A stretch of 64,000 nt of DNA from a virus. The notes under the pieces were generated by a model that did no database searches, was not told the origin of the DNA, and saw only the letters and a program-made list of their open reading frames with translations. This document shows, in pieces, positions 25,316 through 64,000 of this stretch (position 1 is the stretch's first letter; every line of letters begins with the position of its first letter). Made by a program: the position numbers and the translations under genes. The DNA lies in the IMG/VR virus record IMGVR_UViG_3300045125_000077; one strand, given 5' to 3'.

Positions 25316-25357
25316 ATATTGATAAATATAATATCTGGGAGATATTCCTCCTTCAGA

Positions 25358-26451: not shown

Positions 26452-26463
26452 ATGTTTAAATTA

Positions 26464-27095: not shown

Positions 27096-27147
27096 ATAGG
27101 TTTCTTTCTAAATAAATATATATGTTAAATCCTTTTTTTACTTATTT

Positions 27148-41428: not shown

Positions 41429-42926
41429 TTATGGATTAGGACGACTAAAACGTTCATAATCTCTCAAAAATGGTTCATTTGGTGCAGGCGGTGGCTCTAT
41501 TCTATCCTGTAGTTGTTGATTATATTCATCTACTTTTGGTTCTTGTACAACCTGTTCCTGCGTTGGCTCTGGCGTTGGTTCCGGCGTAGGTGATGGCGAC
41601 GACGTAGGCTCTGGCGTAGATGACGCCGTTGGCGTTGGCGTAGGCAACGGAGTAGACGTTGGTGTTACGGTCGACACAACTTCTTCTTTCTTTTTTCCTA
41701 TCAATGTATTATATGCCAAAATCAAACATACTGCTAGTGGGTCAAACACAAGCATAATAGACCATATAAAATAATTGACTGCTGCATCCAATGGTATACC
41801 AAGGCTCTTAGCAATAAACTTGAATGTACCCACATCTGTTTTGACTATCTTGTCTTTGAACTCTGTATTTTGATTGCGTAGTTCTTGTATTTGGTTTTGA
41901 TAATCTATTACCTTCTTTTTTACCAGCATCAACCAGTTCATCCTTTTTGCTGTTCAACGATGATATTTTATTGTCCGACTCTTTGTTGTATGCGTCGATA
42001 GAAGCCATTATTTCTTCTATGTCTTTTTCAAGTTTCTTGATACTTGCTTCTATATCACCACGCTGACCTTTGCTTCTGCTTTCTATTGCTGCTACACGGT
42101 CATTATATTCTTTTACTTGCGTAGCATACTGTGCTCTCAACTTTTCTATTCTGTCTTGAGCATTTTTGATTTGAGCGTCTATGTCTCCACGTTCTTTTGC
42201 CTGACCTTCTTTGACGACTCTTGCTTTGTCCAATCCGCTCTTCTTGAATAATCCACCGGCACCTTCATCCATCCACTTTTGAACTTCTTTGTCTAATATT
42301 TCCAAACGAGCATTATACAACTTTACTTGCTCAAGTTCTCTGGCTATATCAGTATCTGTGGAAGATTTTGCCAGTTCAAGTGCCTCTTTGCTGCTGCTAT
42401 ATCTGCTGAAGCATCTTGGGTTGTATTTGCTGATTTGCGAATACTTTCTATCTGTTGATTTTTGTGCTACAACTTGCAGTTTTTGTTCTATAAACTTTTT
42501 CTGTTGGCATCAACGCCCGCTATTTCTTCAGAGTTATAATCTGAACTCTTTATGACTTCTATTGATTTTTCAAACTCTTTTATCTTTACGTTATTAGACT
42601 CTATATTCTGTTCATATCCTTGAACAGCAATAGATGTGGCCGTATATCCAGCACTCAAATATCCATATATACCAATGGATGTTATGCCCATCAGAAACAA
42701 TGTAGCAAGCAACATATATGTTTTCATCCACCATCCAATCTCTTTCCATTTTTTGTTTCAAGAATGTGGCAGTTATGATTTTGCCTATTTCAAGTGCAGT
42801 GCCCATTATAATAATAGACAATCCACCGCCAACAAACAATAGTTTCAACCCTATAATGCTAAAATATGCACCGCACACTGATATTGCTATACCACTAAGT
42901 AACACTAAAAACGCTAAGATATTCAT
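41429..42926 (-). CDS. membrane protein with N-terminal TM helices, long coiled coil, C-terminal TM and Pro/Thr-rich tail (frameshifted)
   Basis: MNILAFLVLLSGIAISVCGAYFSIIGL...ALEIGKI...TSIGIYGYLS; coiled coil; FIWSIMLVFDPLAVCLILAYN; TPTSTPLPTPTP tail. Confidence 0.75.
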
Positions 42927-42999: not shown

Positions 43000-43648
43000 A
43001 ATTAAATTTTAAAATTCTCTAATAATATGTATTATTTCTGCTTTTTCATGTATTTTACCAAAAGCGCATAAAGTGGCTTTTCTATTTTCTTAAATCCCTT
43101 CAAGATTACAAATGTTCTATCATTTTTGTTGTGATGATCTGATATTCTTTTCTTGAGTCCTTGAATCTTATTTCATGGCCTTCTATTTCAGCGTCGAGTA
43201 CTTGGGAAAACTCATTGAATCTATTTCCTCCATAAGGATCTTCGTGTGCTATGAGCACAGTTTCCAACGCCATTTTAAGGTCGGGCAGTTCAAAAATGTT
43301 CCAACCAGTTTTCCCATTCTTTCCACACGCCATATTTTTCTAGAAGGTTATTACTTGTTCAATAAAATCAGAATCCTCTAAAACTTTCTTCGGATCAAGT
43401 GGTTCACGATCAGATTCGGCACCTCTCAATCCAGCCGCTGTCAACCCCGCACCTGCAAGACCCATTCCCAGTTTTTTAAGAAAATCTCTACGGCCCATAT
43501 CGGCTTCTGACAGTACACCGTGTGTCATCAACGATTCAACTAATCTTGGATTTGATCGAAGATATTCTGTGATCTTATTGGCTTCACTGATGATGCGCAT
43601 TTCTTCAACTGTTTCTCTGATTAACTGCTTTAATTCTGATTTTTTCAT
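43000..43648 (-). CDS. hypothetical protein with an internal twin-arginine-like motif (probably one frameshifted gene)
   Basis: MKKSELKQLIRE...VLSEADMGRRDFLKKLGMGLAGAGLTAAG; ORF 43106-43333 continues it; the end is approximate. Confidence 0.55.
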
Positions 43649-43720
43649 ATTATAATAAATGGGTTTATAATAATAAATATATACAAAACGAAGAAACTGT
43701 CGTATTTTCGAAGTTTTATA

Positions 43721-44502
43721 TCAAGTAGCCATATCAAGAAACTCTGCTTTTTGAGATGCTTTGTTGTCTGCGTGCCATTGTATTCTATTCTGGCATTTTG
43801 CATAATACTCACCACTGATTTCAGAACTATAGCATTTTCTATTTTGACGCATACAAGCAATATATGTTGTAGCAGAGCCTCCAAATGGATCAACTACCAC
43901 ATCATTCTCATTAGTATGCTTTTGTATAAGTTCTTCAAATAACTCAAGCGACTTTTGCGTAGGATGAATGCGGTCTACTTCACGCTTGCCTTGATATATA
44001 GGATATTTGTAAATACCATTATCATATTCAGAGTTGAATATAGCCTTGCCGCCTTTGATACAAGAAATAGCAATCTCGCGTGAGTTGCTAAGATATGTTG
44101 CCTTAGAGTTGATAGGCACGGGGTTGGTCTTGACCCATTCAATAAATCGCAGCTTGCCAAACTTATGTTTTTCAAGCAGTTTGCTTAGTGTTTCAATCTT
44201 CCATAAGTCAAAAAGATGATACAAGAACCGCCATTCTTCAAAATGCGACTAAACTCACCAATAAACTTATCAAGGTCGTCTAAAGTAAAACTATTATCCC
44301 AATCACCATAGTCAGTTTGAATAGCATACTTTTTACCATGCTCGGCTTTCTTTTGTTCAGCATCATTTGCATTGAACAAAGCATCCATGCCCGTTTTCTT
44401 TGAAATAATATATGGCGGGTCAGTAAGCACAAAATCAACAGACTTGTCTGTTATTTGTTTGAGCATATCCAAGCCATTTATATTATGAAATCCAATATCC
44501 AT
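43721..44502 (-). CDS. DNA N4/N6 methyltransferase (beta class)
   Basis: VDFVLTDPPY catalytic motif precedes HPTQKS...VVDPFGGSATT (SAM-binding); one frameshift. Confidence 0.92.
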
Positions 44503-44508
44503 AAAAAC

Positions 44509-44536
44509 ACTATACCATAAAAAGTGAGGTCGTCAA
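44509..44536 (-). promoter_or_regulatory. sigma70-like promoter TTGACG-N16-TATAGT with extended -10 (TGG)
   Basis: Immediately upstream of the methyltransferase ATG. Confidence 0.6.
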
Positions 44537-44561
44537 TAATATAAAAACCTCAGAAGTTGTA

Positions 44562-46787
44562 TTATGGACCATAACGTATGATGATTCTTACATTACTTGG
44601 TGCTGAAATACCTGTAACAGTAACAAGTGCTGAACTACTGTCCGCTGAACTAGTCATTCCATCAAAGGTACGTGTGGCGACAACTTTGTATGTTCCACCA
44701 GTATCTATTACGACTGGCGATAGAGTGTATGTCGATAATGTAGCACCAGATATAGCCACATTATTTTTATACCATTGATATGATATTGTACCTGCTCCGG
44801 AATCTGTAACAGGCGGCGCAGGAGTTGAGGACACGCCGCTTATATCCTGAAATCCGGTCGTTCCTCCATTAATGAGCGTACTGTATGATAATGGTGTTAA
44901 TGAACCATTGGCTGTGTTTACTGTATACCACTGACCATTATCAAAGGATTGACCATACAACGTTGAACCGGCTGGACCAAATGCGATCTGAAGCCTGCCT
45001 ATTATCGGAGAACCAACCGTGCCTATATTGTTGGCAGCTATAGTGCCACTTAACGGACCAGACGGCAGAGTCAGATTATAAAACATAGAACCATTGGAAA
45101 CAGTGGCATATAATGTACCATTACTAGTAATGGCTATGTCTCCAATATAATTGTTGTTTGTTGTAGGTATACCGCCCGTAAGCGTAGCGGACGAAATGCC
45201 ATTAGGAATCATTGTAGGAGTTCCTGACCCATCATATTGTAATGCAACTCGTACCAGTGTATGTGCTCAGTATAATATACCAATAAGCATTATTCCAATA
45301 TGCTCCGTTATCCGGTCGGCTGGTGGTCAATTGCCCCAAATTGATTGGCGTAGAATTGGCAGTTTGGTTCCAATACCACAGAGACGCCAGACCACTTCCA
45401 CTTGGATTAGGTGCCGCAAAAAATACTTGACCTCGGGTAGCATCAAACGCTATTCCGTTTATTGCGTTTGTTGATGTAGCACCTACGAGAGTAGAACACA
45501 TCTCGCACAGCCCTCTTTGTTCCAGTATCGCTGATTTCATAAATATTGTTGTCTGTACCAACAGTATAATAATACACCGATACTGATGCGAAGGATGACA
45601 GTGTAAGTGTATTTCCAAACTCAACACTTGTAGCAACAGGCTGAACGGTAAAGATAGGTGCCTTTAATGTTCTAACAACGTTTACTGTCGCTGTATTGCT
45701 GTCTGTAAAACTGGATACACCATCTATAGTACTGGTTGCTCTAAGTTTATACGCACCAGAGTCTGCGCTGGCGGCGGTACTCACGAGTATATAATCTAGA
45801 AGTTGCTCCTGTTATAATAACATCATCTTTGTACCATTGATATGTTGGAGTTGGTGTACCAGTAGCCAACCCAGATAATGTAAATGATTGATTGAGGTCA
45901 ATGGACACAGAGGATGGTTGAGCAGTAAATACTGGTGCCGCAAGTGTTCTAACTACGGTTATTGTTACTATATTACTATCAACTGAACTAGATGCTCCAT
46001 TTAGTGTATTGGTGGCAACAACCTTATAATCGCCGCCATTGGTACTAATAGCAGAACTTACGGTATATGATGTAGATGTGGCTCCAGTTATAGCGACGTT
46101 GTCTTTATACCATTGGTATGTTGGAGTCGGAGTGCCGGTCGCCAGTGCCGATAGTGTAAATGACTGTGTAAGATTTACTGTTGCGGCGACGGGTTGCGTA
46201 GTAAATGTGGGCGGCACCAAAACTTCTATAACAGTAACTGCTACCGCATTGCTATCCGTAGAAACTACTGTTCCGCTAACAGTATTACTTGCTGATACTT
46301 TGTATGTGCCCGCATCAGCAAGAACTGCCGATGATACTGTATATGTAGCAGATGTTGCACCTGATATAGCAACATTATTTTTAAACCATTGATATGTTGG
46401 TGGAGAGTCGCCCGTGGCGAGAGATGATAGTGTAAAAGATTGGCCGACAGATGCGTTAGTAGCAACTGGCTGTAGTGTAAAACCGGTGGATTGACCACAC
46501 TTAAATTTGCAATATTTGAAACACTATTTCCTAACGAGTTACTAACTTCTACAGTATAAGCGGCGGCATCTGATATTGGTAACATTCGCTAACACATACG
46601 ATATAGACGTTGCACCTGCAATATTCGTTCCCCCTTTTTCCATTGATATGTAAACGGGGCTGTTCCGCTGGCGGTAACATCAAAGGTGACAGTCTGACCA
46701 ACTTTAGCAACCGGATTAACATCTTGAGCATATCCCATACTCGCATAATGCAAGTATATAAAAAAGTATCTTGATATAGTTCTTCAT
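44562..46787 (-). CDS. secreted tandem immunoglobulin (I-set-like) domain protein with an inserted beta-propeller (~740 aa, frameshifted)
   Basis: Signal-peptide-like MKNYIKILFYILAL...YA-QD; five Ig repeats (P.FT.QP...FTLS..ATG.P.PTYQWYK...I.GATS..Y.V......GDY.VVA.N); propeller with GIAFD, GDIAIT, QIAFGP and GFQDISG. Confidence 0.8.
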
Positions 46788-46826
46788 TTTGGCCTATATT
46801 GATGGTAGGCAGCATTTTGTCAAGAT

Positions 46827-46859
46827 AAAAAAACAACCCCACATTTCTGCGGGGTTGTT
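46827..46859 (-). terminator. intrinsic terminator
   Basis: 12-bp stem AACAACCCCGCA-GAAA-TGTGGGGTTGTT followed by a T run. Confidence 0.9.
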
Positions 46860-46918
46860 AGGGGTGACTTATTCAGCTACCCTCCACCAGTCTCTATCGA
46901 GACAATATAACCATTAAG
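46827..46918 (-). ncRNA. candidate ~90-nt small RNA (two hairpins plus terminator)
   Basis: Own promoter TTGACA(46947-52)-N16-TATTAT(46925-30); hairpins GTCTC-GATA-GAGAC and GGGTAGCT-GAATA-AGTCACCC; ends in a strong terminator; the only ORF is 6 codons long. Confidence 0.5.
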
Positions 46919-46958
46919 AATGCAATAATAGACTATTTGATATGTTTGTCAAGCTCTA

Positions 46959-47414
46959 TTATAGCAGCTTAATTTTAGTTGGTTTGGCTTCTTCTATTTT
47001 TACACGAGGCAATGTAACTTTCAATGTTCCATTTGTAAAGTCAGCTTTTATTTTATTTTTGCATCAATACCTTCACCAACGCTGAACGAGCGAGTGAAGC
47101 TGGAACGCTTTATTTCTTTATGAAATATAACGACCTTTTGACTCATTGACCGATTCAGGTGCTTGTTTCTTTCCACCACGAATAACAAGCGTATCACCTT
47201 CTAGTTCAACCGAAACATCTTCTTTTGCTAATCCAGCAAGGTCCGCTTCTAGTTCATATTTGTCGCTATATTCTACAACATCAACTTTTGGATAGCTGAC
47301 TTTGTTGTATGTTCCAGTGTATGGAGTTACGCCGAAACTTCCGAAAACATCGTCGAATAGACGATCAAATGGGGTGAGAAACTCATCCCGTGTATATCTG
47401 CTTAATGTACTCAT
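46959..47414 (-). CDS. small heat shock protein (Hsp20/alpha-crystallin)
   Basis: YPKVDVVE..YELEADLAGLAKEDVSVELEGDTLVIRG...EIKRSSFTRSFS...ADFTNGTLKVTLP; one frameshift. Confidence 0.93.
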
Positions 47415-47470
47415 ATTTTTTGTATCCTTTGTTTATATCGGCTTCATTATGAACACCGACGCTGTATATA

Positions 47471-47487
47471 TGCAATATGCGTGCCAA
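47471..47487 (-). promoter_or_regulatory. sigma-54 (RpoN) -24/-12 promoter
   Basis: TTGGCACGCATATTGCA matches YTGGCACG-N4-TTGCW exactly; 57 nt upstream of the hsp20 ATG. Confidence 0.8.
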
Positions 47488-47520
47488 CGATACTGTCACA
47501 CCTTTTACCTCTAAAGACAC

Positions 47521-47544
47521 AAAAAGGGCACCACAATAGTGCCC
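47521..47544 (-). terminator. intrinsic terminator after the glycosyltransferase block
   Basis: GGGCAC-TATTGTG-GTGCCC followed by TTTTT. Confidence 0.7.
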
Positions 47545-47559
47545 CGTTTTGTCACACGC

Positions 47560-47578
47560 TTGAGACGACTTGTCTCAA
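47560..47578. promoter_or_regulatory. palindrome TTGAGAC-N5-GTCTCAA, candidate enhancer-binding-protein site
   Basis: Perfect 7-bp arms about 110 nt upstream of the predicted sigma-54 start site. Confidence 0.5.
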
Positions 47579-47589
47579 AATAATATTTT

Positions 47590-48324
47590 AAATTTTCGTT
47601 GGAATCTTCTGTAAGACTCTCTTTCCATTTACCTGGCATAGTTATATGACCTTTTTACACCCCGTGAGATATATCACTTATAAAGTTTTCGTTTTGTCCC
47701 GCCGCCAACGGATATACCATATATCTGTTCTTAAACTGTCTATCTAGATATAAATCTGCTGGCATTGAGGGTCATTTATATCAAAATTAATTACATCATT
47801 TATTATTTTATTAAATATAGTATGATTATATAATACTGCATGAGCCCCGTAAACTTCTTCCACTTTCATTAAATTTGGAGAAATTAAATCATACATTGAA
47901 AATTTATTATGCGGGTCTGCTATTCCTCCCAAATACACACATCCCACTCATCAATATTTTTCAATTGCGCCAATGCAGAAGTTACTAAATCAATAGGATT
48001 ATAAAAATCATTAATATGAAAAAGCACATCATCTTCAAATATCAATGCATTCTTACATCCATTTTGTTTTGCGTGTCCAAGTCCTATTGCGTGAGAAACC
48101 CAACAACAATGCGCATTAAAATCATCATTTAATTTTTGATTTTCCGGTATTTCGTGTTCCGAGCCAATCATCTTTGCCATTTTATTCGGTGTAATTGCAG
48201 GTATTCGATTAACATATTGTAATATTCCAAGTTCTTGAAAATGTCTTTCAAGTACCAATTTTCTATCGACACGCTTATCCAGATTTATATATGCCGCGTA
48301 ATCTACAAAATTAAACAGCTTCAT
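47590..48324 (-). CDS. glycosyltransferase family 25-like protein
   Basis: YINLDKRVDRK...CCWVSH...ALIFEDD; frameshifted, end approximate. Confidence 0.8.
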
Positions 48325-48328
48325 ATCA

Positions 48329-48998
48329 TTAATTTTTTACCATATCGTGTTCCGCATTACACGCTAAATAGTCGGCAACGTGAATAAGACGGGCAAGATT
48401 ATTTTTTAGACCCTTATCGGGGTCATAAGTCTTTAGATAAAACTCGGCAGCTTCATCATACATGCCATCAGAAAGTTTGATAGCCAATGTTTCTTTCCCA
48501 AGATAGCACAATACCAAATCTTTGTAGATTATACAAAGCACGATCTGTAACTTTCCAAAACTGGTTCTTTGTGTTGTTTTTGAACAGCAATCCTTGCTTA
48601 TTCATAGACCATTCGTCTGTGTTTGCTATATAATATGGTCCAGTTTCATCTCCAAGTTTTCCCAAATCGTGATGTAATGCTGCCATAACGCGCTCTTCTT
48701 CTGTATAATCAATCTCTCCGCCAAGTGTTTCATACAACTTTTGTACTCCTCGGCTCGCACGTTCTACGTCAAGAACGTGATGCAGGTATCCACCCATATA
48801 AGCGTTATGATAATGCTTTTTTCCAGATGCTGGGGCAGTTGCCAACTGAAGCCCAAGATTGTTTTCTGCATACATTACAAGCAACTTCTCAAGTCTTTCT
48901 CCGCTAAACTTTTCCTTCAAAAACTCAAGAAAATATTCATAATTTTCTTGAAGTTGTTTTTCTGACAATTCTGTTCCAATATGTAGTGTATTATTCAT
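48329..48998 (-). CDS. HD-domain hydrolase (YhaM-like)
   Basis: ASGKKHYHNAYMGGYLHHVLDV...ALHHDLGK...LIHVADYLA. Confidence 0.85.
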
Positions 48999-49012
48999 AA
49001 ATGATATGATTT

Positions 49013-49040
49013 ACCATATCAATTACTACACAATCGTCAA
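49013..49040 (-). promoter_or_regulatory. sigma70-like promoter TTGACG-N16-TATGGT (TGn extended -10)
   Basis: Upstream of the HD gene. Confidence 0.5.
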
Positions 49041-49050
49041 TTTATAATAA

Positions 49051-50750
49051 TTAAACTTCTTTACGAATTTCTTTTGAATAATGAAATACTCTATTATGAT
49101 TAACCAGCGAAGCCATAAGCACTGCACTACGCAATCTTCCTTTTTTCATCATTTGATATGCGTGCGACATGATTGTTTGTTCAAACGCATGAAGCATATA
49201 CTGTTTCGAGAAATATCTTATAGTTTCCCGCTTTTGTCATAACACTTGGCCAATTACTATAATATACATCCCCAATCAAATAACTTACACCATCTATACA
49301 TCCAGAATTTTTCCATTTCATTCTATGAGTGCCATCGGGGAAGTATTTGTTTTTTACGTTCTGTGGTACATTATGCCAAGCCCATTGCTTGTGATGGTCG
49401 CCAAAAAATTCGCTGAATGAAATCTTAACAAAGTCTAATTTTTCTTCTTCTACGATATTGATGCATTTACTTACCCAATTATCTATATGCATATTCAGTC
49501 CGTTCTTGCATAATATGTTTTTATCTTGCATAAGCATATCATCCTCAAACCATATGATATACTTAGCGCCACTGTCGTGAAAATGTTGTGCCGCCCACTG
49601 ACGTGCTCCACACACTCCCATATTACCTTTTCGTATCAATTCAAACCCATATTTTTTAGCAATATCATCAAATGCCGGTCTTGTAGTTTCGTCTGTGCTA
49701 TTATCTATTAGATATTTGTTGGCTATTTCCAATAGCTCTGGATTATATTTTTCCATGCTGTTTTATCAACAAAAGTAATTGCTGCGGCAAATTAAAGCAA
49801 GTGATATACAAATTTACACCTTTACCGGACTTGTTCATTGCTACTTCTTGTTCACTTTGAAAATATTCGACATCGTCTGGTATATTTTGCTTTAATATGC
49901 TTATTTCATTTTTTGGGAATGGGCATTTGCTTAACTCGCTCAAAGAAAGTAGATATCAACCCATCACCATTTATCATTTCTATGTTAGACAATTCCGGAT
50001 ACAAATATGTAATTAGCGTGAATATGCTTTCTTCTGTTCCCATGTATCCATCGGTCAATGTATTGTTAAGAAGGTTGTAGTATATTCCGTTAACTTGAGA
50101 CAGTATCTTCTTATTTCCACCAAAAAATCCACCTCTTGCAACACGATTTACTTTGGCGTTTGCATATTTGTTCATGCCATCAATCTTAAATCCATGTATT
50201 TCGCTATTTGTTTCGTATGGATAACAAATAAACAAAAACTTTTTCAACATCGGTTCTAATTTTTGAATTACATTGTCGTGACTAAAATAACCGGATGTAC
50301 GGTCTGCGTTAGTCCGGCGTCAATCCAACAATAATTTTCCGAATCAAATGGGTTAAAAATAGCAGCGTCATTTAGTAAAAACATTTTACCCATGACCAAA
50401 GGATTATATAAATCAAGTTTTGCTTGAGTTGATTCCGCCAGCCATCCAACTTGATTATACCAATCTGGGTCTTGGCGTATTTTGTTTACTTTATCGTACA
50501 AGGAAAACCAAGTACGAAAATCCTCCGGTTTTTTTATACGAACGTCTGTACCAACCGAGCCTTCTCTGGCTTTCATCACAAAATCTGCGTGACATTCGTC
50601 CACATATACCAACATAGGGGTATTTTTACATGCCCGCAAAAGTTTATCAAAGTGTTGAAGATATTGACTAAACGGGCGCTTGAACCCCGTGTCCATTTCG
50701 CCTCGCTTTAAATCAAATAATCCAGTTACAAGTGTTGTATTGTAGTTCAT
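49051..50750 (-). CDS. HtrL/YibB-family protein joined to a GT-A (GT2-like) domain (frameshifted)
   Basis: TLVTGLFDLKRG...YNPLVMGKMFLLNDAAIFNPFDSENYCWIDAG and RVARGGFFGG...GTEESIF (HtrL); second part LYITCFNLPQQ...IDNS...NMGVCGARQW...WFEDD; the fusion is inferred across indels. Confidence 0.7.
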
Positions 50751-50751
50751 A

Positions 50752-52355
50752 TTATCTTTTCTTCACAAAAACATTTTCCACGACCAGTGCATCCATTTGT
50801 GTATTGTCAAATACAGTAAATGCTTCTTTTACAGTGGATAAAACTGGCTTTCCGTTGACATTAAAGCTGGTATTAAGCAGCACACCTATACCATTTATCT
50901 TTTCAACTTCGCCGATGAGATCATACAGCCACGGATTTACTTCTCTTCTTAGAGTTTGAACTCTGGCCGTACCATCAACGTGCGTTATAGATTTTAATTT
51001 TTCCTTATATTCATTTCTGACATTAAATGCAAAACTCATGTATGGGGATTCTTGCAATACTTCAAAATATTTGTTGGCGTCCTCATATCTTACTACAGGA
51101 GCAAATGGCCTGTACCATTCTCTGTTTTTACTTTAGCATTTAAAACATCTTTCATCTGTGGATAGCTTGGGTCGCATAGTATACTTCTGTTTCCAAGTGC
51201 TCGTGGACCATGTTCCGCATTTCCTTTTGCCACACCAACTATCTTTCCTGCACAGATATATTTCGCAAGTTCTTCAATTTTAGTATCTTGAATTACGTCG
51301 CAACTATACGAATGCTCATAAATATAATATCCAATAGAATCCAAGTCAAGTAATGGCATGCCAGAATATATCAGTTCTATTGGCTTTTCCGGTTTTAATA
51401 CGTGCAAAACTCCACCCGCAGCCAACCCACAATCACTTGGATTTGGTGGAATAAACATATCTCTATTATATCGTTTCTTTATTTCTGTATTAAGAAGCAC
51501 ATTTAGCGCACAGCCGCCCGTCATTCCTATTGCATAATTTGGATACTTCTTGATATGTTCATCGACCACGTCAAAAAATACATCTTCAAAAGCTTTTTGT
51601 GAAGTAGCAGCAATATCATATGCTATTTGTCCATCCAATCTATCGCTTGCACTAAAAGTTATTCCTGTTTTTGCACTTAACTCTGCAATTTTTTCTTGTA
51701 TATTTTTTGTATAAACTTTAGTTCTGTAAAAATCCTTGAATGCGTTCAACCATTCTTGGTCTCGTTGTTCCATATCCACACAACCCCATCAATTTTCCAC
51801 TATATACAAGATTACCATCATCAAAGCCAGATTCTTGTCTAATTGGTTTTAAGTAATGACCAAAAGTCATATACGCTCCCATATCATATTCCGCCGAAAA
51901 CAATAGTTTTGGAGCCTGTTTTCTGCCTTCACAAACATAACCATTAAAAAACCCATCGTTGCCCCCTCCGTCAAACGATATTATTACCATCTTATCGTAT
52001 GGCGATTGGTAGTATGTTCCAATTGTATGCAAATAATGATGAGTCAAATCATGAAGCGGTTCTTTATATGGAATATTTTCCTCATATTTTACATATATGC
52101 TTTCGCCGTTTATTACATTTACTGAGTGAGAATAACTTGTCACGCAAATATCAAACTTGTCTATTCCATATCTACGGTTGATATATTCGCATATTTGTTT
52201 TACATAGTATATTTCCCGTTTGGTATAGATTTATACTGACTTATTCCAGAATTCTTATATCCATTGAAGCGTTCTGCTTCAACTACATATATTTTTTCTC
52301 CAACGTTAAACGCGATGGCACCATTATGAGAACCGTGGATTGAAACTACTTTCAT
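50752..52355 (-). CDS. carbamoyltransferase (NodU/CmcH/TobZ family)
   Basis: HHYLH..., SFDGGG, TGGCALN, DCGLAAGG, EHGPRALGNRSIL, HVDGTARVQTL, LLNTSFNVNGKP. Confidence 0.92.
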
Positions 52356-53027
52356 TTTCTAAATTCGCCAGCAAATTCTGCGTATGTTGAGGTTGTGTAA
52401 TAATGATATGTGGTTCTTCTTTTCAATAAATCGGACATATCTTCTTGTGGCCACCCGTGGTTGATGAGAATTGGATAAGAAGAAATAAAGTTTCTAGTTT
52501 TTTGAAGAGTTGTATAATAATAATGGTCCAACTGGTCATATTTTTCATATGACCATTCAAGAATATCTTGATACATGCTTTCTTTTACAACTAATGCATG
52601 TGCAGATTTGGCAGATTGAATTTTACCTACATTCTCATCAAGTTTGAGTAATGGAGCGTGCAATATAGTACCAAAAAACATGGCATCCCAATTTATTTTT
52701 TTCGGATTGCTCAAGAAATTTGAGCATAGTTTGTTTATATGGAATATGATAATCTCCAATACCTGTAGATGGTGGGTCCATTATATAAAAATCATCTTCG
52801 CATATAAACACAGATTTCCACCCACGAGATATGGCTGTGCGTATAATTTCTTTGTGCGCTTCACCACATCCCGCATATTCACCCTTTACTATTCCAGGCA
52901 TTCTTTCCATACCAGAAATTTCAAACTTGGTAAATTGGTCTTCACACTGTTTTTTGCGATCAGTGCGGTGTTCCATGTTAATATAAAATCCACCATCCGC
53001 GACTTTTTTATTGTAAAATGTAATCAT
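52352..53027 (-). CDS. glycosyltransferase family 25-like protein
   Basis: YINMEHRTDRK...GCGEAH...FICEDD...SAHALVV; one frameshift. Confidence 0.78.
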
Positions 53028-54329
53028 AGATTTCCTACAATTCTATCTCCCCAACCTTTTGCCTTGCTGTGCGGCCATACGACCCAATGATGAGGTTTTT
53101 CGAAGTATTGAATGTTCTCCAAAGCTTGATATATTTATCTCCTTTTGGATCTCTGGCGTCTTTTTAGCAATTTGGATATTTCTTCACTGTTTGCGTCGTA
53201 TCTGTATATTAAAGAGTTGTCTTCTCGCTCAAAAGCAACACACCAAAAATCGTAATCATCCAATTTAAAACTGTTAATTGGTAAATCGATACAATGTTTG
53301 AATATCTGTAAGAAGGAATCTTCCCACTCACGCTCAGTCTTGTATTTATGATATTTGTTTGGTGGATACGCTTTGTCTATAGTTTCTTGTTGAACTGCCC
53401 TTTTTCCAAAGTGTAGTCCCGCATACTTTTCATAATCTTTTAATGTTCTCACTTTTCCAAACCCATATATTCCTCAATCTATAGTTTCATTTTTTTCGCC
53501 ATCCATGGAGAATAATATTCTATTTCTTCTATGACATAGATGATTTCTTTCACCCCAATCTTTTTTGTCGGGAATTTTGTTTGTGCTATTGGAACCGTGG
53601 TCATCCCAATGCTTGGTTCTACCCTTGCGTGTATATTCGTGCCACGCAACTAGACGATGTGGGTGAAATAAATCATACCCCCAAGTAAATGCTCGCACTG
53701 CAATACTGATTTCTTCACCATGAAAGTAATATTCTGGATCGTGTGGTACTTCTTTACAAAATTTTCCAGTAGTAAATGCAAAATGTGCAGAATAAAATCT
53801 TGCAGGAACTGGTGCAGACAATTCTTTCCAATTGTCGATAGATGCGGGCAAAAAGAATACAGCACCCTCTGGAATAAATCGGTCGAAGTCCATTCGCCAA
53901 GGAGTTTGAACTCGTGCTTCTGGATCTTTATCTGGGTCAAATGACGGAATGTATCCTGTAAGTAATGGCTTTTTGTATCCCATCTTCTGAAGTTGTTTGT
54001 ACATTCCGATTATAACCTCATCCCAGTCTTTAACAAACCTATGATGCGAATCTAACTGCAACGTATATTCTTCACCATCATATTTCTGCTGTATTTGATT
54101 ACGTGCCCAACAAGCACCTTTACTTTCCATGTTGCGGAATATCAATAATTTTTACATTGGGTAAATCTTTTATTTCATCTATTTTTTCTTCAGGCGAATG
54201 TTGCCAAGCTATGCAGAATACCAAGTTTTCCGGATGCTTTGCGTTCGCTATACAATCTTTAATCGTAGGAACCAGTTGAGGGTCGCGATAAGCGGCGATT
54301 TGTATGAAAATTTTTCCTTTATTACTCAT
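53024..54329 (-). CDS. GT60-family (Pfam GlcNAc, PF11397-like) polypeptide alpha-GlcNAc transferase
   Basis: IFIQIAAYRDPQ, SKGACWAR, LQLDSHHRF, FYSAHFAF, YFHGEE..AVRAFTWGYDLF, RTLKDYEKYAG match the Gnt1/OGNT family pattern; two frameshifts. Confidence 0.8.
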
Positions 54330-54350
54330 ATAACATTTAATTTACTATAT

Positions 54351-54376
54351 TCTTGTATATATACAAGATATAAATA
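54351..54376 (-). promoter_or_regulatory. TATTTATA box followed by perfect 18-bp palindrome TCTTGTATATATACAAGA
   Basis: Read directly in the short intergenic gap ahead of the GT60 gene. Confidence 0.5.
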
Positions 54377-54381
54377 ATATT

Positions 54382-55164
54382 TTAACAAGGATTTGATGTT
54401 AAATATGCTGTACCAACATCAACTCTGGTTATTCTACTTCCACAAGTAATATTCGTCAGAGTTGCACCTACTGGAAATCCTTCTTCGTAATATTCAATTT
54501 CTTCTCCAATCGAATTTATATAATAAAACGATATTCTTCCATCGGTGCCCCTTCCTCCGGTCACACCATTTATATAATATGTTGGAAGAAGGCCCACTCC
54601 AAAATTTGCGGTAATAGTTACATTCTCACCAACATTAAAACCGGAAACTATAGGATTCAGAGAATATTTACTAATATTAAAAGATATTCCTTCGGGAGCG
54701 TCCCAGCCTGCAAAATGATAACCAGCGTCGGGAATAGCCTGTAAAATCATTTCTCCACTTCCTATCGATATAATTCCTGTGGGTGTGGGGCCATCTATTC
54801 TGGAAGCTTGTCCACCAGGTGTCGATGCAATCGTGTATATTACTTGGGTTTTAAATGGAGTGTTGGTGGGGGTAGGTGTAATTAACGGTCTACTTGTAGT
54901 AACTGTTGGAGTTACGGTCGGTGAATTGGTCAAAGATGGAGTGGGTGTAATAAAAATTTGTCTAGTAACAATTGGAGTTTTTGATGGGGTAATCGACACT
55001 GTTTGAGTTGGTGTCGGAGTAGGAGGAATTTCTATCCATCCGATATTTTTACTGTCGCCATCGACCTTGACGTACAGTTTTCCTTCATCGGTAGATACAT
55101 CATTTCCCAAAAGTCCAAACACAGAAGAATTTGGATTGCCGTGTACAACAATTTTTTCTTGCAT
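54382..55164 (-). CDS. Pro/Thr-rich (mucin-like) protein with N-terminal GNPN...LYVK...GW module and InlB-B-repeat-like domain
   Basis: Intact 260-aa ORF; PPTPTPTQT...[10 protein letters not shown]...TPTPTNTP; LQAIPDAGYHFAGW. Confidence 0.8.
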   Translation of the reverse strand: MQEKIVVHGNPNSSVFGLLGNDVSTDEGKLYVKVDGDSKNIGWIEIPPTPTPTQTVSITPSKTPIVTRQIFITPTPSLTNSPTVTPTVTTSRPLITPTPTNTPFKTQVIYTIASTPGGQASRIDGPTPTGIISIGSGEMILQAIPDAGYHFAGWDAPEGISFNISKYSLNPIVSGFNVGENVTITANFGVGLLPTYYINGVTGGRGTDGRISFYYINSIGEEIEYYEEGFPVGATLTNITCGSRITRVDVGTAYLTSNPC

Positions 55165-55167
55165 AAA

Positions 55168-55525
55168 TTATATAGAAAACTCCGGTTCACTGGAACTTGG
55201 AGTAACCGTAGGAGTTCTAGTAGGAGTCGGTGTATTGGTAGGAGTATATGATATAGTAGGAGTTACGGTCCGAGTAATCGACGGAGTGGGCGTTGTTGTT
55301 GGAGTGGTTGTTGGAGATAAATAAACTGTAGTGGATGGAGTTTGTGTGGGCGTAGATGTAGGTGTGGGTGTTCTATTATCTCTTCCAACAAAAGTCCATC
55401 CTATGTTTTTGCTATCTTCTTTGTATTTTATATACAAGTTGCCGTCATCAGAACCTAATACAGAGCCTATAATTCCAAATACGGATTTATCTGGGTCTCC
55501 CTCGTGGTGGAATGCTTCTTCTCAT
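55168..55525 (-). CDS. Pro/Thr-rich (mucin-like) protein, paralogous to the downstream gene
   Basis: EGDPDKSVFG...LYIKYKEDSKNIGW followed by ~65 aa of TPTPTSTPTQTP...; one frameshift near the start. Confidence 0.75.
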
Positions 55526-55527
55526 TT

Positions 55528-57987
55528 TTATGGAGTAAATGGTACATCTACCTCATATGCTGAACTTGAATAAACTGTTCCAGATGAAGCAAATACTCCA
55601 GTAGGATATTTTATCCAATACAATTGAAACCTATATACACCTGGGTGAAGGTGGTAATATTGAACCATATTGATTATTCCAGCCAACCGCCCTCTGTTCT
55701 GTACCTCCCGACAAAGCCTCGCCAAGCCGATCCGTCCCAATATAGAGCTTTACAACGTAGTCTATACGAACCAGTCGCCGCCGCTGACAATACTGCCGGG
55801 ATCCGTAGTATAAATGTATGGAGGATTGTTGTATGTAAATGTGGTAGATGAACCAGTAGTGGTACTCAGATATACATTTGGATGATTAGATGCAATATAA
55901 GCCGGAGGAGTGACTGGAGTAAATCCAGATGCAGTAGCAATTGACATCGTTGTTATTCCCCAAGGAACTGGTTGAGTTGTCGGTGCATAAGAACTGTTAT
56001 ATGTTACCCAGTAAAGTTCTGGCTGGCCAAACGCCAACCGCTGGAGGAAATATTTCGGAATAATTATTATTGAATGCGACGGTTCTTTGTTGGGCATTTA
56101 CTCCAAGCGCCGCGCCCAGTTCGGTACCAGTATTACCAGAAATTTTGCATCTCAATCTATATCTAAAAGAACTTAATACTGACGAATTTCCGGTGTAAAT
56201 ATATGGTGGATTGTTTATAGAATATGTCGTGTTAGACAAATATACTTCATTTCCTGAAACGGTGGCGGAGAAAATGTGGATGCGGTGGCGACACTCATTG
56301 TTACGGTAGTAAATGCTGCACCTCCATTCACAGAAATTACTGGATATTGCCCATAAATGTCTGGTGTATCTCCATACTCAACGTAATATAAATCGGTCGT
56401 ATATAATCCAACCGGAGGAACATCTACGGGAACATAATTTGTATTAAATACATTTGCTCGTTGTTCTAGTGCCAAGTATGGAGCAACCTCCAATAATTCT
56501 CTGGCTTTTACTCTCAATTTCCAACGAGTCAATGATGTTATTGAAGAATTCGTAGTAAATACTGTAGGAGAATCGTTTTCTCTAAAACTGCTTGCACTGA
56601 GATAAATACCCCGGCGGCAAAGGAGGAGTTGGCGTAGGTGGTTCCCGCTTGCGTCGGAGTTGGCGTAGGTGGCATTGGTGACGGAGTAATTGTCACGGTC
56701 GGAGATAGGCGTTGGTGTTGGGGGACGGTGGTATATAATTTATTGCACCATATTTAGACGTATATCCTTGGAAACTGAAAGTACGGCGTTGCACGCGCTA
56801 TAAAAGACATACAAACTTCTCATCTGTATGTGCTACTCCAAGTTCTAGCAACGGGTAATACACTTCTTCCATACGATGCGCTTACCAATGGCACTCTATT
56901 GTTATTAAAAGAGTGGATCCCACTATTCTCCTTCGACGGCAACATTTGCCGTAGAACCAATAGATAAAAAGAGGCTGGCCCTGGCGAATATACGGGGAAA
57001 CAATCTGTCAATACATAATTTTCTGGTAACACATTTCTTTGAACCCCATTACCTAAATACCCAGAACATTCCATCGCTGAAAAATATTAAATCCGAATTC
57101 CTTAGAAGGACTTGCTGCTTCTGCACCATCTCTTGGTAATAGTAGGTGATTATCTCCGACAGAATCTAACCACTGCGTTGGTCCCGGATTTAAGTTTTCC
57201 GGACGATACGATGATACCAATGTTGCATCATTATTTCTCCCGCACCACCGTAATAATTTTGTGTTACTTTCGTTCCATTGAGCGCAGCGTTAAATACGTG
57301 AGCCTCATAAATCACGCAGTTTATATTCCAGTGGCTTCCGGACTGTCCATTTCCCATTGTGGTTACAGAACTGCTGATATAGCTTGGTGCTCCGGATAAT
57401 GTACCAATCAGTGCAGAATTTATATAAAATTTAAATTCTCCAGTATATTCTTTTGTTATCGTCGCTTCGAACGCACGGTTTGGATATAAATTTATAAAGT
57501 CGGCATATTCGATTACTTTCTCCGTTGTACCATCATTTATGTATCCAATCAAACTGCTAGATTTTACTCCAATATATGCTCTACTACCATAATCGGACAT
57601 GCCGATTAGTTGAGAACCTGCACCAAACAACACTCTACTACCAGTGTCATTCAGTAAAGCGTCGGATGGTATAAATGCTTTTACTGACAGAGAAAAAGTT
57701 ATTGCCCAAATTATTCGCCTTACCATAACAATACATACTTAGTTCATCTAACGGAGCAACATTTGCAGCAAAAGATAATCCGTTTGAGTTTTGATATCCC
57801 GTGTTGAGGAACAGCAAAATTGGCAAAACCACCAGAAACAACATATTCAGCAAAATCTGCTGTGGTAATTTTTGGTTTCACCAGTAGGACTTGTAAGTTC
57901 GCTAACGTCTACAATAGGAAGCCAGTCGCCATTTGCTACATTTGTTGAAGTAAGTGTGCGTAGTTCAGTTGTTTTCTGGTTTGCCAT
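55528..57987 (-). CDS. putative tail-fibre-type protein(s): N-terminal anchor, LamG-like domain, Pro/Thr linker, two internal repeats (heavily frameshifted; may be more than one gene)
   Basis: MANQKTTELRTLTSTNVANGDWLPIVDVS...TKKIT; YINSALIG...IYEAHVFNAAL; PT tract ~56620-56730; repeats ..TMS(V/I)ATAS...VYLS...NNPPYIYT. Confidence 0.5.
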
Positions 57988-58071
57988 AATAAAAATATCG
58001 TTTGATTATAAATATCAAACCACACCCAAAAATATATACCATTTTATATTTTATGAAATACTTATTATATC

Positions 58072-58845
58072 TTACCCCAAGGCTTTTACCTTTTGTACGA
58101 TAAACTTGACTAGAGCACTGCGTAAAATATCGTCCTCAGTAAACTCAAACGTATATATACCGTGTTCTTTGCTGTCATCGTCGTTGAACAGGTTGAATAT
58201 CGATTGAAATCCACTGCGACCATTTATATCCGATTGTTGTGGGTCTCCGCACACAAATATCTTACTAAATTCGCCTGCTCTGGTCATTAGTGTTATAAGC
58301 TCCTTTTTTGTGCAGTTTTGCATTTCATCTGCTACAACTGCCTTGGCATTCCAGTTCAACCCGCGTAGATATCCAATCGGCAAACCTTCTATACGGCTGT
58401 CTCTTATCAAGAACTGTATATCTTCTTTTGGCAAAAGTTCATCAAGTTTATCAATGAGTGGACGCTTATATGGACTTAGTTTGTCATCTGCTTCGCCGGG
58501 CAATGTGCCCATTTTTGCGTCAGCACTTTCAACGATGCTACGAACATATAACAAGTCGCTGTACTTTTTTCGTTCATTAGCAGCAACGCCGCTAATACAG
58601 ACAAATATGTTTTTGTTGAACCTGCTGGACCAGACACCAATAACATTTTTACTTTTTTATCTAACGCAAGTTCTATGAATTTTTTCTGCTTTTCTGTAAG
58701 TTCTCTTTCTAATATACGCAGAGGATGGTCTAATTTTCCTCTTTGATGCACTACTGATCTTTTATCTTTTTTGTTGTGGCAGTTGATTGTTGTTTTCTAA
58801 TTCGTTATGTTTCTTCTTGTTCAGTAGGCGTTTTTTCTTTGACAT
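58072..58845 (-). CDS. phoH: PhoH-like ATPase
   Basis: GPAGSTKT, GTLPGEADDK, YLRGLNW, DEMQN, TRAGEFSK...GDPQQSD. Confidence 0.93.
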
Positions 58846-58849
58846 ATGT

Positions 58850-59219
58850 TATTTTGTTTTTTTGTATTCAAAAAAGATGGACATCATATCCAACTTTTGC
58901 ATAACCTTTCTGGCCTTGCGGCAAACTTCAAAATCTTCGTTCTTCTTGGAAAACTCAATGATGTTTTGAATATTTTCCCTGAAATCTTGCGGTTCATCAA
59001 CACCACAAAACTTGAGTTTTTGAAACTGAATACTTTCACAACCGGCATTCGCATTTTGATGCCATATTCTATATTTTCCAGTATGCGATGGTTGATTTCC
59101 GAACGATGCGATTCTAAATATTTCTCCATCTCCGCATTAGATGATGGCAGTTCTATGACTTCGTATGTGTTTTTTAACTTTGATTTTGATCCAGACTTAC
59201 TGCGTGGATTCTTTTTCAT
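58850..59219 (-). CDS. hypothetical protein
   Basis: ORF 58884-59219 with a frameshifted C-terminus. Confidence 0.55.
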
Positions 59220-61419: not shown

Positions 61420-63211
61420 CTGCCACGGTCATACCAAGTTTGTTGGCAATGTCTATTGTCTTTGTATTCTTTGCTCCAAGCTTTTCCAGTGCTTTTTCTT
61501 TTCCTTTGGTGTCATCAAATGAAGTTCACGCTGTAATCTCTGATTTCTTCTGGGTCAATAGGTTCTTCAGACGTAAGTTTATCTATAAAGTCTGTTTGTC
61601 CAACATCTGTTTTCATTCCTGCCGTTAATGAAGTTGTTGGTGCAAATGGACCACCTTTACGAATATCTCTTTCAAGCCAATCAACTTTATATTCTTCTAT
61701 AGGACCAAACTTGGCAGCAAAATCCTTATACAATCTTTCAACGTCATTCCATTTTTCAATCACTTCAGCCCCGCCGTTCCAAAATGATATCATTTTTTCT
61801 AAACCAAATTCTACCAGCCAATCCGCCAGATTTTATTCTAAATGCACCTAGATCATCATCGTTATGAACATTGCCATCTTTTATAAAGTCAGCTAATGGA
61901 CCAGAATATACAGAGTCAAGCATAGCCTTCTATGTCTGATATTTCAATCTGTCGGTTTTCTAAAGTATCTATCAATTCTTGTTTTTGGTTTGGGTCGTCT
62001 GTTATAGAGTCATTATTGTCGTGTGCCATCTGAAGTACTTCCATTATGTCTGTATGTGTTCCACCCGCATTTAGTTGCTGAAAATTTTGGATATACAAAA
62101 AGCGATGGCGTCGCTATCCATATCTCGCAATCTTTGAAATCTCCATCAATACTAAGCACATTGTCTGGACTTTCCTTCAGCAAATCTTTGCGTCTTTATA
62201 TGTCCTTCAAGTGCTGGCATTGCGGCGGTTGCTTGTGCTGGATAGTCAAATCCTTTGCTGCTTTCTGTCCTGTCTGTACCAAAAACTTGGACTATAATCT
62301 GATTTATCTTTCTTAAAATGTTTTTGAGCTTTCAGTGCCTGTATTTCCTCTGGGCTCAATTTTTTCTTTGTCGTCTGGAACATTGCTTTTCAATTCTTGA
62401 TATGTATAAATTCCGCGACTATCAATAAATTCATACAATGCGGTTTCAAGATTCATGTTATAGTTTTTCATGAAACCATATACTTGATTCATATATGCAT
62501 CACTTTGTTTTTTTCATTCCAAAAACTTATTACATTTGCATCTGCCCAAATTCTGCCGCAAGTTCATTTGATTCATCGTCGCTACCGCTGCCCCGAATAT
62601 CAAGTTTTTGAAATATTTTTTATGCTTTTCTAGATACTTGCGAACATCTTCAAGACTGCTTGCATTTAGTCCGTGAAAATAACACTCATGTCGTGCGTAG
62701 TTTTTTGCTACAAGTCCAGATCGCCATCCATACGTCTAAATTCATAATTACGTTCAAACATATCTTGTTTCCCGCGTGAAACATATGCAGCATATCTAAG
62801 AATCATATCCAGGCTTCCGTGCGTTCCATTATGAAGATATATTATTATCTTGTCTTTTGGTTCTATGAAAAATGGATATGCGTCAGATCATCCCACCGAC
62901 TAGATACCGTTTTTGCGTTTTATTCCAAGTTTTTTCAAGTTTTTGAACATCTGATGGGTCGAGAAAAAATCTGTCTGGACTTTCAGACAAAATACTTTCC
63001 AGCAAAAATTGTATGTCAAATGGAGTGCGTTTTTTCACAGCAATTTACTCTTTGGTTTAAATGGATTATTTTCTGCACGAAAAGCGTGCTTTTGGTCTAT
63101 GCCTTGCTTCACGATATTAGCAGCAGCTTCATTGTAATTTGGAGCACGCTTAACTTCAGGTTGCATATCACGTATAACTTTACTTATTTCATTTTGATTT
63201 ATATTGTTCAT
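61420..63211 (-). CDS. large hypothetical protein (heavily frameshifted)
   Basis: ATG 63211 MNNINQNEISKVIRDMQPEV; fragments 61916-62098 and 61515-61793; TATTTATA box 10 nt upstream. Confidence 0.45.
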
Positions 63212-63221
63212 ATGATTTATC

Positions 63222-64000
63222 TATAAATAGCACGTAGTATACCAGCATCAGACCCAGTAATATTTATTGTTGCTCCGATTTTTACTATTGTATTTGGGTC
63301 ATAAGAAGCAGTAAATCCTTTTACGGTAGTATACCAAAATGTCCTGCACTATAAATTGTATGCGGCGGATATATGGCATAATAATCAAAACTATAATATA
63401 CTTGGCTGGCAGATAGTTGAATAATGTCTCCTGCTTGTATAGAAATATTTGATGGATATATTTGTTCTGTTTGCTGGTCGTTTAACTGAAATGTGGAACC
63501 TTTCCATAATGGAAAACTTGTAGATGTTCCATAATTCAATGGATTTATTGATATTTTTGGATATGTGGTTGGCGTCGGAGTCGGAGTAACCTCGGGTGTT
63601 TGTGTGGGTAGTAGACGGAGTATTGGTGGTGGAGTAACCGTTGGTGTTGCTGTTTCGGTTGGAGTCGGAGTAACACTTTCTGTGGGAGTAACCGTCGGAG
63701 TAACCGTTGGTGTTGCTGTTTCGGTTGGAGTCGGAGTAACACTTTCTGGTGGGAGTAACCGTCGGAGTAACCGTTGGTGTTGCTGTTTCGGTTGGAGTCG
63801 GAGTAACACTTTCTGTGGGAGTAACCGTCGGATGCAACCGTTGGTGTTGCTGTTTCGGTTGGAGTCGGAGTAACACTTTCTGTGGGAGTCGGAGTCGGAG
63901 TTGCTGGTGGGTAATATGTGGGCTCGGTCGCTTCTAAAGGTCTGTAATATCTCAGAAGAATGAAGCGGCGCACGAAAAACGCGAAAGCGTTTCACGATAA
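63222..64000 (-). CDS. Pro/Thr-rich protein, 5'-truncated by the window edge
   Basis: [25 protein letters not shown] repeats followed by a ~130-aa globular C-terminus. Confidence 0.7.
63630..63900. repeat. 66-bp tandem repeat encoding [22 protein letters not shown]
   Basis: ttggtgttgctgtttcgg recurs at 63641 and 63707 and twice more. Confidence 0.9.

Follow-up and report, generated by a model that had tools for sequence, protein, structure and literature searches.

A candidate GT60-primed O-glycosylation cluster beside Pro/Thr-rich proteins in an uncultivated phage

What does a phage glycosylate when it carries a set of its own glycosyltransferases next to genes for Pro/Thr-rich (PT) proteins? 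The question is raised by a stretch of 64,000 nucleotides (the window) from IMG/VR record IMGVR_UViG_3300045125_000077. On its minus strand, three consecutive genes for PT proteins are followed directly by a block of genes for sugar-modifying enzymes, the first of which is a GT60 glycosyltransferase; a preliminary description had read this block as a pathway for mucin-type glycosylation of the PT proteins. The element is phage DNA, to judge from its baseplate-wedge and tail-fibre PHROG matches and from its relatives, which include a 297-kb record rated 100% complete (G001, 297,258 bases). Our best reading, held with modest confidence, is that the block performs virion O-glycosylation of the phage's own PT proteins. 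It depends mainly on the nature of the GT60 enzyme and on the association of this enzyme with PT tracts in other phages.

The GT60 enzyme and its PT-rich neighbours

The proteins of intact relatives were used for all protein work, and the genes were then mapped back onto the window; intact lengths are those in the relatives. On profile evidence the first enzyme of the block is a member of GT60, as had been proposed. A fragment from the window (53474-54151) matches PF11397 with an E value of 2.5e-57 (195.4 bits), and the intact protein of relative L005 matches it with E 1.3e-72 (245.7 bits, the cut-off being 21), this being its sole Pfam match. It also matches phrog_24687 (E 8.9e-176). A search of PDB sequences, both with the protein alone and with a 49-sequence profile, found no match, and hence no solved GT60 structure. 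The AlphaFold model, built from a 49-sequence alignment, has a pLDDT of 94.7 and a Rossmann-like GT-A core. Its best 29 solved matches are all catalytic domains of polypeptide GalNAc-transferases (ppGalNAc-Ts), with Z 19.2-22.4 and, for the best of them, a root-mean-square deviation of 3.6 A over 280 residues, whereas other GT-A families reach Z <= 17.3. The residues D93-S94-H95 are invariant in the 49 homologues and form a DxH motif of the ppGalNAc-T type. The predicted fold is closest to that of the mucin-type initiators, the GT27 ppGalNAc-Ts. Membership of GT27 itself was rejected: the likeness is one of fold only (Z 22 at 12-15% identity), there is no ricin lectin Pfam match, and the sole Pfam match is PF11397. 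The enzyme ends in a conserved C-terminal β domain of about 95 amino acids (aa; residues ~340-434) with invariant R376, D378 and W418; in some alignments this domain occupies the place of the ppGalNAc-T lectin domain.

The three upstream genes each encode a PT tract. The largest protein (814 aa) has a PT linker of about 40 aa, three repeated C-terminal β modules and a weak match to a ConA-like lectin (Laminin_G_3, E 0.005), while the 118-aa protein has nothing but a PT-rich tail after its conserved N-terminal module (about 45 aa). The 264-aa protein opens with this module too, its N-terminal 97 residues being 48% identical to the 118-aa protein (E 9e-19), and continues with a PT linker and an all-β C-terminal domain ending in Cys; in its model the N-terminal 110 residues are disordered and the all-β domain is folded confidently. 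It is a putative virion fibre. In the window's clade a single family supplies the gene immediately upstream of GT60; its proteins combine the conserved N-terminal module with a PT linker and a C-terminal domain that varies greatly. A resemblance of the N-terminal module to Mtd_N was also considered, and was dropped when BLASTP against the window's Mtd_N-bearing fibre gave no confirmation. No hydrophobic N-termini resembling signal peptides were seen in the PT proteins or GT60 when the translations were read by eye (no signal-peptide predictor was run). A prediction of the complex between GT60 and the PT tail of the 118-aa protein scored 0.00 with the partner disordered, which weighs neither way. 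Elsewhere in the window there are two further PT tracts, both on the minus strand, which are candidate acceptors (Table 1).

GT60 and PT tracts are statistically associated. The GT60 proteins of the loci fetched form 62 clusters at 85% identity, 59 of them with enough upstream sequence for analysis. Of these 59, 20 have a same-strand PT tract no more than 2.5 kb upstream, compared with 6.25% of background stretches in the same loci, an enrichment of about 5-fold, and in 16 of the 20 the tract is in the directly adjacent open reading frame (ORF). The window's own syntenic clade accounts for 11 of the 20 clusters; the others are scattered on the GT60 tree, where PT adjacency requires at least 6-9 state changes. 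At distant, non-syntenic loci (L056, L094, L101, L113, L125, L127 and L145), where the GT60 is 53-61% identical, the protein encoded directly upstream is built differently and again carries long PT tracts. These proteins include one of 1,366 aa that is 58% Pro, Thr and Ser (L101), fibre-like proteins (639-706 aa) from L125 and L127, whose phage backbone is different, and a pair of 579-770 aa (L056). Loci fetched by their carbamoyltransferase, and so picked blind to GT60 and PT content, agree: a PT tract was found in 20 of the 40 that have GT60 and in 1 of the 29 that do not.

The same pattern is seen in whole genomes. Among 50,697 GenBank phages only four records hold this GT60, these being the cultured phages XacN1, Xoo-sp13, CM1 and RAS14. 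Tracts coding for (TP)3 occur in eight of nine GT60-bearing genomes: XacN1 (29 tracts), Xoo-sp13 (26), CM1 (19), and the records G011 (13), G005 (12), G001 (11), G002 (9) and G003 (1), with none in the ninth, G009. They are absent (0 each) from all six GT60-lacking jumbo phages, namely RsoM2USA, XbC2, Phosso, Vibrio 2.275.O, pEa_SNUABM_47 and 121Q, of which XbC2 infects Xanthomonas, as does XacN1. A control pattern gave 0-1 matches in these genomes. In G001 each of the 11 (TP)3-coding matches is found either shortly upstream of GT60 or shortly past the block, with no match to the control pattern, and just six ORFs carry PT tracts, four of them flanking the GT60 block. The fifth (61548-62198) lies directly before another cluster that includes a GT2 gene; its product has 216 aa, a Thr/Pro tail of more than 110 aa and an N-terminal motif like that of the 118-aa protein (compared by eye, unaligned). 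In that stretch of G001 (61548-65374; L165:1548-5374) the PT-tail protein is directly followed by a 254-aa ORF, a 383-aa ORF with a GT2 match and further ORFs.

Glycan staining has been reported for one of the cultured phages. XacN1 virions contain two protein bands that stain with periodic acid-Schiff, the stain being read at the level of the band, and it was suggested that the two glycosyltransferases of XacN1 make the glycans of these bands (PMC5852040). One of the two, ORF334, is this GT60 (51% identity). It heads a cluster, ORF334-ORF330, in which it is followed by a carbamoyltransferase, and the 546-aa ORF330 stands in the position of the HtrL gene (likened by position only). A few kb away, after the baseplate wedge genes, ORF325 (L161:7371-17312) encodes a protein of 3,313 aa with (TP)n tracts near its C-terminus, separated by modules rich in Cys, Gly and Asp. 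Taken together, the comparison across phages supports, without proving, the glycosylation of PT proteins by the phages that encode them.

Layout of the block and state of its genes

Mapping with the intact proteins of relatives L005 and L004 places every gene of the preliminary description on the minus strand at the position given there, and in the order given: three PT proteins, GT60, a GT25-like enzyme, a carbamoyltransferase and an HtrL+GT2 fusion, then an HD-like gene, a second GT25-like gene and a terminator (Table 1). The intact relatives have 4-base overlaps of stop and start codon at the GT60/GT25-like and GT25-like/carbamoyltransferase junctions, and one base separates the carbamoyltransferase stop from the HtrL+GT2 start; the tight coupling claimed for the block is thus confirmed. 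So is the claim of a shared TATTTATA box, one copy of which lies upstream of each of the GT60 and largest PT gene starts. The window holds 13 copies in all, 11 of them on the coding strand. The promoter proposed for the HD-like gene is a 9/12 match to the consensus, which shuffled sequence equals, and the counts from a sigma-70 promoter scan are likewise those of shuffled sequence. The proposed terminator is present as a hairpin, after which come genes for HSP20 and for a protein with five Ig domains. Just upstream of the PT genes is a gene for a PhoH-like ATPase (PF02562, E 2.8e-44 in L005).

Table 1. Features of the GT60 locus and further PT tracts in the window (positions refer to the window)
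Feature	Position	Strand	Remarks
PT tract in ORF 63321-63998	63558-63922	minus	ORF runs off window end; candidate acceptor
PhoH-like ATPase gene	58075-58871	minus	frame-broken in window
TATTTATA box	58007-58014	minus	~20 nt upstream of start of 814-aa PT protein
814-aa PT protein homologue, fibre-like	55528-57987	minus	PT tract 56646-56705; mapped from relatives; frame-broken in window
118-aa PT-tail protein homologue	55168-55521	minus	PT tract 55183-55377; mapped from relatives
264-aa PT protein homologue	54382-55164	minus	PT tract 54904-55026; intact 260-aa ORF in window
TATTTATA box	54369-54376	minus	~40 nt upstream of GT60 start
GT60 (PF11397, phrog_24687)	53024-54329	minus	434 aa in intact relatives; profile matches and fold
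GT25-like glycosyltransferase	52352-53027	minus	224 aa in relatives; below Pfam cut-off, language-model neighbours
NodU/CmcH/TobZ-family O-carbamoyltransferase	50752-52355	minus	533 aa in relatives; N and C domain matches
HtrL/YibB + GT2 fusion	49051-50750	minus	565 aa in relatives; profile matches
HD-like metal-dependent phosphohydrolase	48332-48998	minus	222-224 aa in relatives; phrog_28876, below-cut-off Pfam
Second GT25-like glycosyltransferase	47590-48330	minus	247 aa in L004; accessory gene; below-cut-off Pfam
Intrinsic-terminator-like hairpin	47525-47545	minus	closes block; 9 pairs, 5 G-C, T run
PT tract in ORF 41429-41941	41558-41677	minus	candidate acceptor

Of the remaining enzymes, the carbamoyltransferase of an intact relative matches both Carbam_trans_N (Kae1-like, E 1.6e-20) and Carbam_trans_C (E 4.7e-64); its score against the NodU equivalog model (155.9 bits, cut-off 1000) makes it a member of the family and not a NodU orthologue. 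The fusion protein matches HtrL/YibB PF09612 (E 6.7e-18, 65.7 bits, cut-off 24.1) and GT2 PF00535 (E 1.9e-5, 25.1 bits, cut-off 23.3), with 70.4 bits against the HtrL model TIGR02192, which is under the equivalog cut-off. Fragments of the window gave a weak GT25 match, and both GT25-like genes score 14.2-17.7 bits against PF01755 (cut-off 24). Their language-model neighbours are mostly PF01755 clusters (score 0.97), and their atlas neighbours include Nucleocytoviricota clusters. The second of them is found in L004 and the window and is missing from L005. The HD-like gene is likewise below the cut-off of 22 for PF01966 (14.5-17.2 bits); it matches phrog_28876, 'metal-dependent phosphohydrolase' (E 4.9e-8), and has HD clusters as its atlas neighbours.

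The middle of the block is exchanged among close relatives. Between fixed ends, GT60 and HtrL+GT2, the syntenic relatives carry one to six differing genes (L001, L006, L013, L015, L016, L020, L024, L029, L030, L032 and L033), among them GT25-like, PLOD-GT-like, GT10, GT34 and GT77-like transferases, together with FkbM, TylF and FtsJ-type methyltransferases.

The copy in the window is itself frame-broken. With translation table 11 there is no intact ORF for any enzyme gene, only short, overlapping minus-strand ORFs that change frame. The largest PT gene is likewise broken by many frame changes, the 264-aa homologue being the only intact ORF of the three PT genes. Relative to L004 there are 17 one-base insertions and 16 one-base deletions in 10.8 kb of mostly coding DNA, and relative to the intact relatives the rate is about one single-base insertion or deletion (indel) per 300 bases in every gene examined (43600-54414 and beyond); a baseplate J-like gene is in two pieces as well (34250-35314 and 33444-34241). 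Within the block, GT60 changes frame near 54133-54160 and carries indels at 53158 and 53102 that offset each other; the first GT25-like gene changes frame near 52702; the carbamoyltransferase, whose domains are spread over three frames, has four indels (52217, 52206, 51757 and 51131); and HtrL+GT2 has indels at 50293, 49923, 49764, 49190 and 49057. At one junction in the carbamoyltransferase a single A has been lost from a run of A, and restoring it would yield the conserved motif KNREWYRPFAP. GT60 also has an in-frame TGA at a conserved Trp codon (53474-53476, minus strand), which is a substitution and not an indel, and could be either an assembly error or a real nonsense mutation. An alternative genetic code was rejected, as no single stop reassignment restores long ORFs and the breaks are changes of frame.

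Every gene is intact in L005 and L004. The window's indels are also missing from independent short-read contigs of lake and freshwater metagenomes, some of which are 98-99% identical to it; these contigs show one-base gaps against the window at 49189, 49760, 49923, 50293, 51757, 52206, 52218 and 54133. Given that the breaks are absent from both the intact relatives and these contigs, they are specific to this assembly and are most likely errors; the contig looks like an unpolished long-read assembly. In DNA the closest relatives share about 82% identity with the window, with which they are collinear over its positions from about 40 to 61 kb. A megablast search of the region against GenBank phages gave no match. 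The enzyme family is, by sequence matching, very common in metagenomes: more than 250 IMG/VR contigs contain a relative of the GT60 fragment, and more than 7,400 protein clusters (90% identity) match GT60 at E <= 1e-10.

Possible substrates of the block

On our best reading, the block would belong to an uncultivated jumbo myovirus and be expressed late, as a cluster for the O-glycosylation of proteins in the cytoplasm. GT60, as a ppGalNAc-T-like GT-A enzyme with a DxH motif, would use a UDP-sugar to place the first N-acetylhexosamine on Thr (or Ser) hydroxyls within (T-P)n tracts of fibre-like phage proteins, chiefly the three encoded directly upstream of it. The GT25-like enzymes and the HtrL+GT2 fusion would then lengthen the glycan, the carbamoyltransferase would O-carbamoylate one of its sugars, and the HD-like hydrolase would perhaps clear the nucleotide product, the outcome being mucin-like, glycan-coated linkers or tails on the virion. 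In this scheme the acceptor, the sugar, the order of the enzymatic steps, the location on the virion and the biological role are what we infer. No prolyl hydroxylase (PF13640) was found in G001, which makes hydroxyproline an unlikely acceptor and Thr or Ser a likelier one.

Several observations weigh against this proposal. The preliminary description had suggested asking whether GT60 and PT-rich genes co-occur across phages; they do at the levels of adjacency, genome and locus, but not universally, 27 of the 62 GT60 clusters having no PT tract within 10 kb, among them one well-supported GT60 clade of 11. In G002 the PT genes are 125 kb away from GT60. Conversely, a 33-kb viral fragment (G021, the contig of L119) has 39 (TP)3-coding matches at 24905-31767 and no PF11397; it is possibly an exception to the link, or a truncated record. 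This fragment is one of 15 fragmentary carbamoyltransferase contigs, four of which have PF11397 without (TP)3; at 7-45% completeness the contigs are too incomplete to count for or against. Because of the shared ancestry of related genomes, the counts overstate independence. The region is moreover a turnover hot spot, and turnover by itself could have placed variable fibres next to variable glycosyltransferases. The PT proteins are presumptive virion parts: no solved structure matches the C-terminal domain of the 264-aa protein significantly, the matches being weak adhesin- or pilin-like ones, and a 522-aa PT protein in G001 has N-terminal hydrophobic helices and a long coiled coil, more like a membrane protein than a fibre. 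(This protein is encoded just after the glycosyltransferase block, at 226509-228077 (L009:16627-18195), and has a PT tract of 59 aa.) Finally, the window's own copies of the enzyme genes are frame-broken.

The alternative that survives best, though we consider it unlikely, is that the block remodels a glycan of the host envelope (lipopolysaccharide core, O-antigen, capsule or a host glycoprotein), for example against superinfection, and that the adjacent PT genes are an accident of a variable island. GT25 and HtrL/YibB are named after lipopolysaccharide loci, 'glycosyltransferase involved in cell wall biosynthesis' is the JGI name for some homologues, close relatives exchange the middle of the cluster in the manner of O-antigen loci, and many GT60 clusters have no PT gene nearby. 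However, the fold of GT60 is nearest to polypeptide transferases and not to the GT2 enzymes of polysaccharide synthesis, and the block genes that were scanned with Pfam include no lipid-carrier priming transferase, flippase or polymerase. The PT association at the level of both genome and locus also speaks against this alternative, as does the staining of XacN1 virion proteins for glycan (PMC5852040).

Less likely still, the enzymes may glycosylate phage proteins at sites outside the PT tracts, such as the giant fibre rich in Ser, Thr and Ala (291-14651), the capsid or the tail, in which case the PT linkers would be spacers. The PT-less GT60 clades require another acceptor of this kind if they glycosylate proteins at all, and in mycobacteriophages it is the capsid and tail tube that are modified, according to PMC12619734. 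Against this, what tracks GT60, in G001 and across genomes, is PT tracts and not general richness in Ser and Thr, and the adjacency recurs at loci that are not syntenic. That the enzymes glycosylate the phage DNA, as hypermodified bases that protect against restriction, is very improbable: phage glycosyltransferases do often act on DNA (reviewed in PMC12619734), but G001 has no gene of the thymidylate-synthase/hydroxymethylase family (PF00303) to make a hydroxymethyl base, which argues against glycosylated bases of that type, the GT60 fold resembles polypeptide transferases, and the block sits in a region of fibre and structural genes.

If O-glycosylation of PT proteins is accepted as the function of this block, a broader proposal can be put forward tentatively, namely that it represents a widespread cytoplasmic mucin-type pathway of phages, in which GT60 would prime (Thr-Pro)n tracts of fibre-like virion proteins and a rapidly swapped cassette, with the carbamoyltransferase among its members, would build strain-specific glycans, giving environmental jumbo phages a variable glycan coat. 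Mucin-like O-glycosylation would then extend to the viruses of bacteria, and the Pro/Thr linkers of phage fibres would be explained. The swapping of the tailoring cassette would suggest that the surface glycans of the virion are under selection, be it for adhesion, resistance to proteases or escape from recognition, and the family would be a source of soluble polypeptide glycosyltransferases for glyco-engineering. Very few systems of phage-made glycoproteins have been shown experimentally, and a large uncharacterised enzyme family gains here a concrete proposed acceptor, the (TP)n tract. With four cultured phages that carry GT60, and an acceptor proposed, the hypothesis is directly testable.

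Comparison with known systems

The members of GT60 in CAZy include Dictyostelium Gnt1, which is the Skp1 hydroxyproline α-GlcNAc-transferase, the Dictyostelium mucin-type pp-α-GlcNAc-T2 and Trypanosoma cruzi OGNT. The phage enzyme has in common with these the PF11397 profile over the catalytic domain and a GT-A fold with DxH. It would resemble Gnt1 in being soluble and cytoplasmic, and resembles the mucin-type enzymes of T. cruzi and Dictyostelium in having a candidate acceptor rich in Thr and Pro. It differs from the eukaryotic enzymes in being encoded by a phage, in its extra C-terminal β domain of about 95 aa, and in that hydroxyproline is an unlikely acceptor. The GT27 ppGalNAc-Ts, which prefer Thr flanked by Pro, are alike in fold (Z up to 22.4) and in the DxH-type metal motif; the phage enzyme differs from them in sequence (12-15% identity), in having no ricin lectin Pfam match, and in not being a type II membrane protein.

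Among viruses, chlorovirus and mimivirus glycosylate their capsid or fibril proteins with enzymes that they encode. Their systems are similar to that proposed here in that the glycan is built in the cytoplasm by virus-encoded enzymes, independently of the host, with variable sets of glycosyltransferases; they differ in belonging to giant viruses of eukaryotes, and in both the initiating chemistry and the acceptors. The chlorovirus case is cited in PMC5852040.

Among phages, virion glycosylation is known in mycobacteriophages (Freeman et al. 2023, as cited in PMC12619734), where the C-termini of capsid and tail-tube subunits serve as acceptors. Common to the two systems is the proposal that glycosyltransferases encoded by the phage modify its own structural proteins; the mycobacteriophage system is found in another group of phages and is experimentally proven, whereas that in the window is a candidate. 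The large aquatic 'moraphages' have four groups of glycosyltransferases in their core genome, and virion glycosylation has been mentioned as one option for these (PMC12619734).

XacN1 resembles the window in its GT60, its carbamoyltransferase and its many (TP)n tracts, and has the glycan-stained bands; it differs in lineage, which is distant, in host and GC content, and in the position of its GT60 cluster, which is beside replication genes. Its authors drew no link from enzyme to GT60 or to PT tracts (PMC5852040), and literature searches on GT60 in phages, carbamoyltransferase hypermodification and phage O-glycosylation of Thr linkers gave no account of this system. The idea is not wholly new, phage-encoded virion glycosylation being known in mycobacteriophages and suggested for XacN1. 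What would be distinctive is that a GT60 initiator resembling the ppGalNAc-Ts comes together with mucin-like tracts of (TP)n and a tailoring cassette that can be exchanged.

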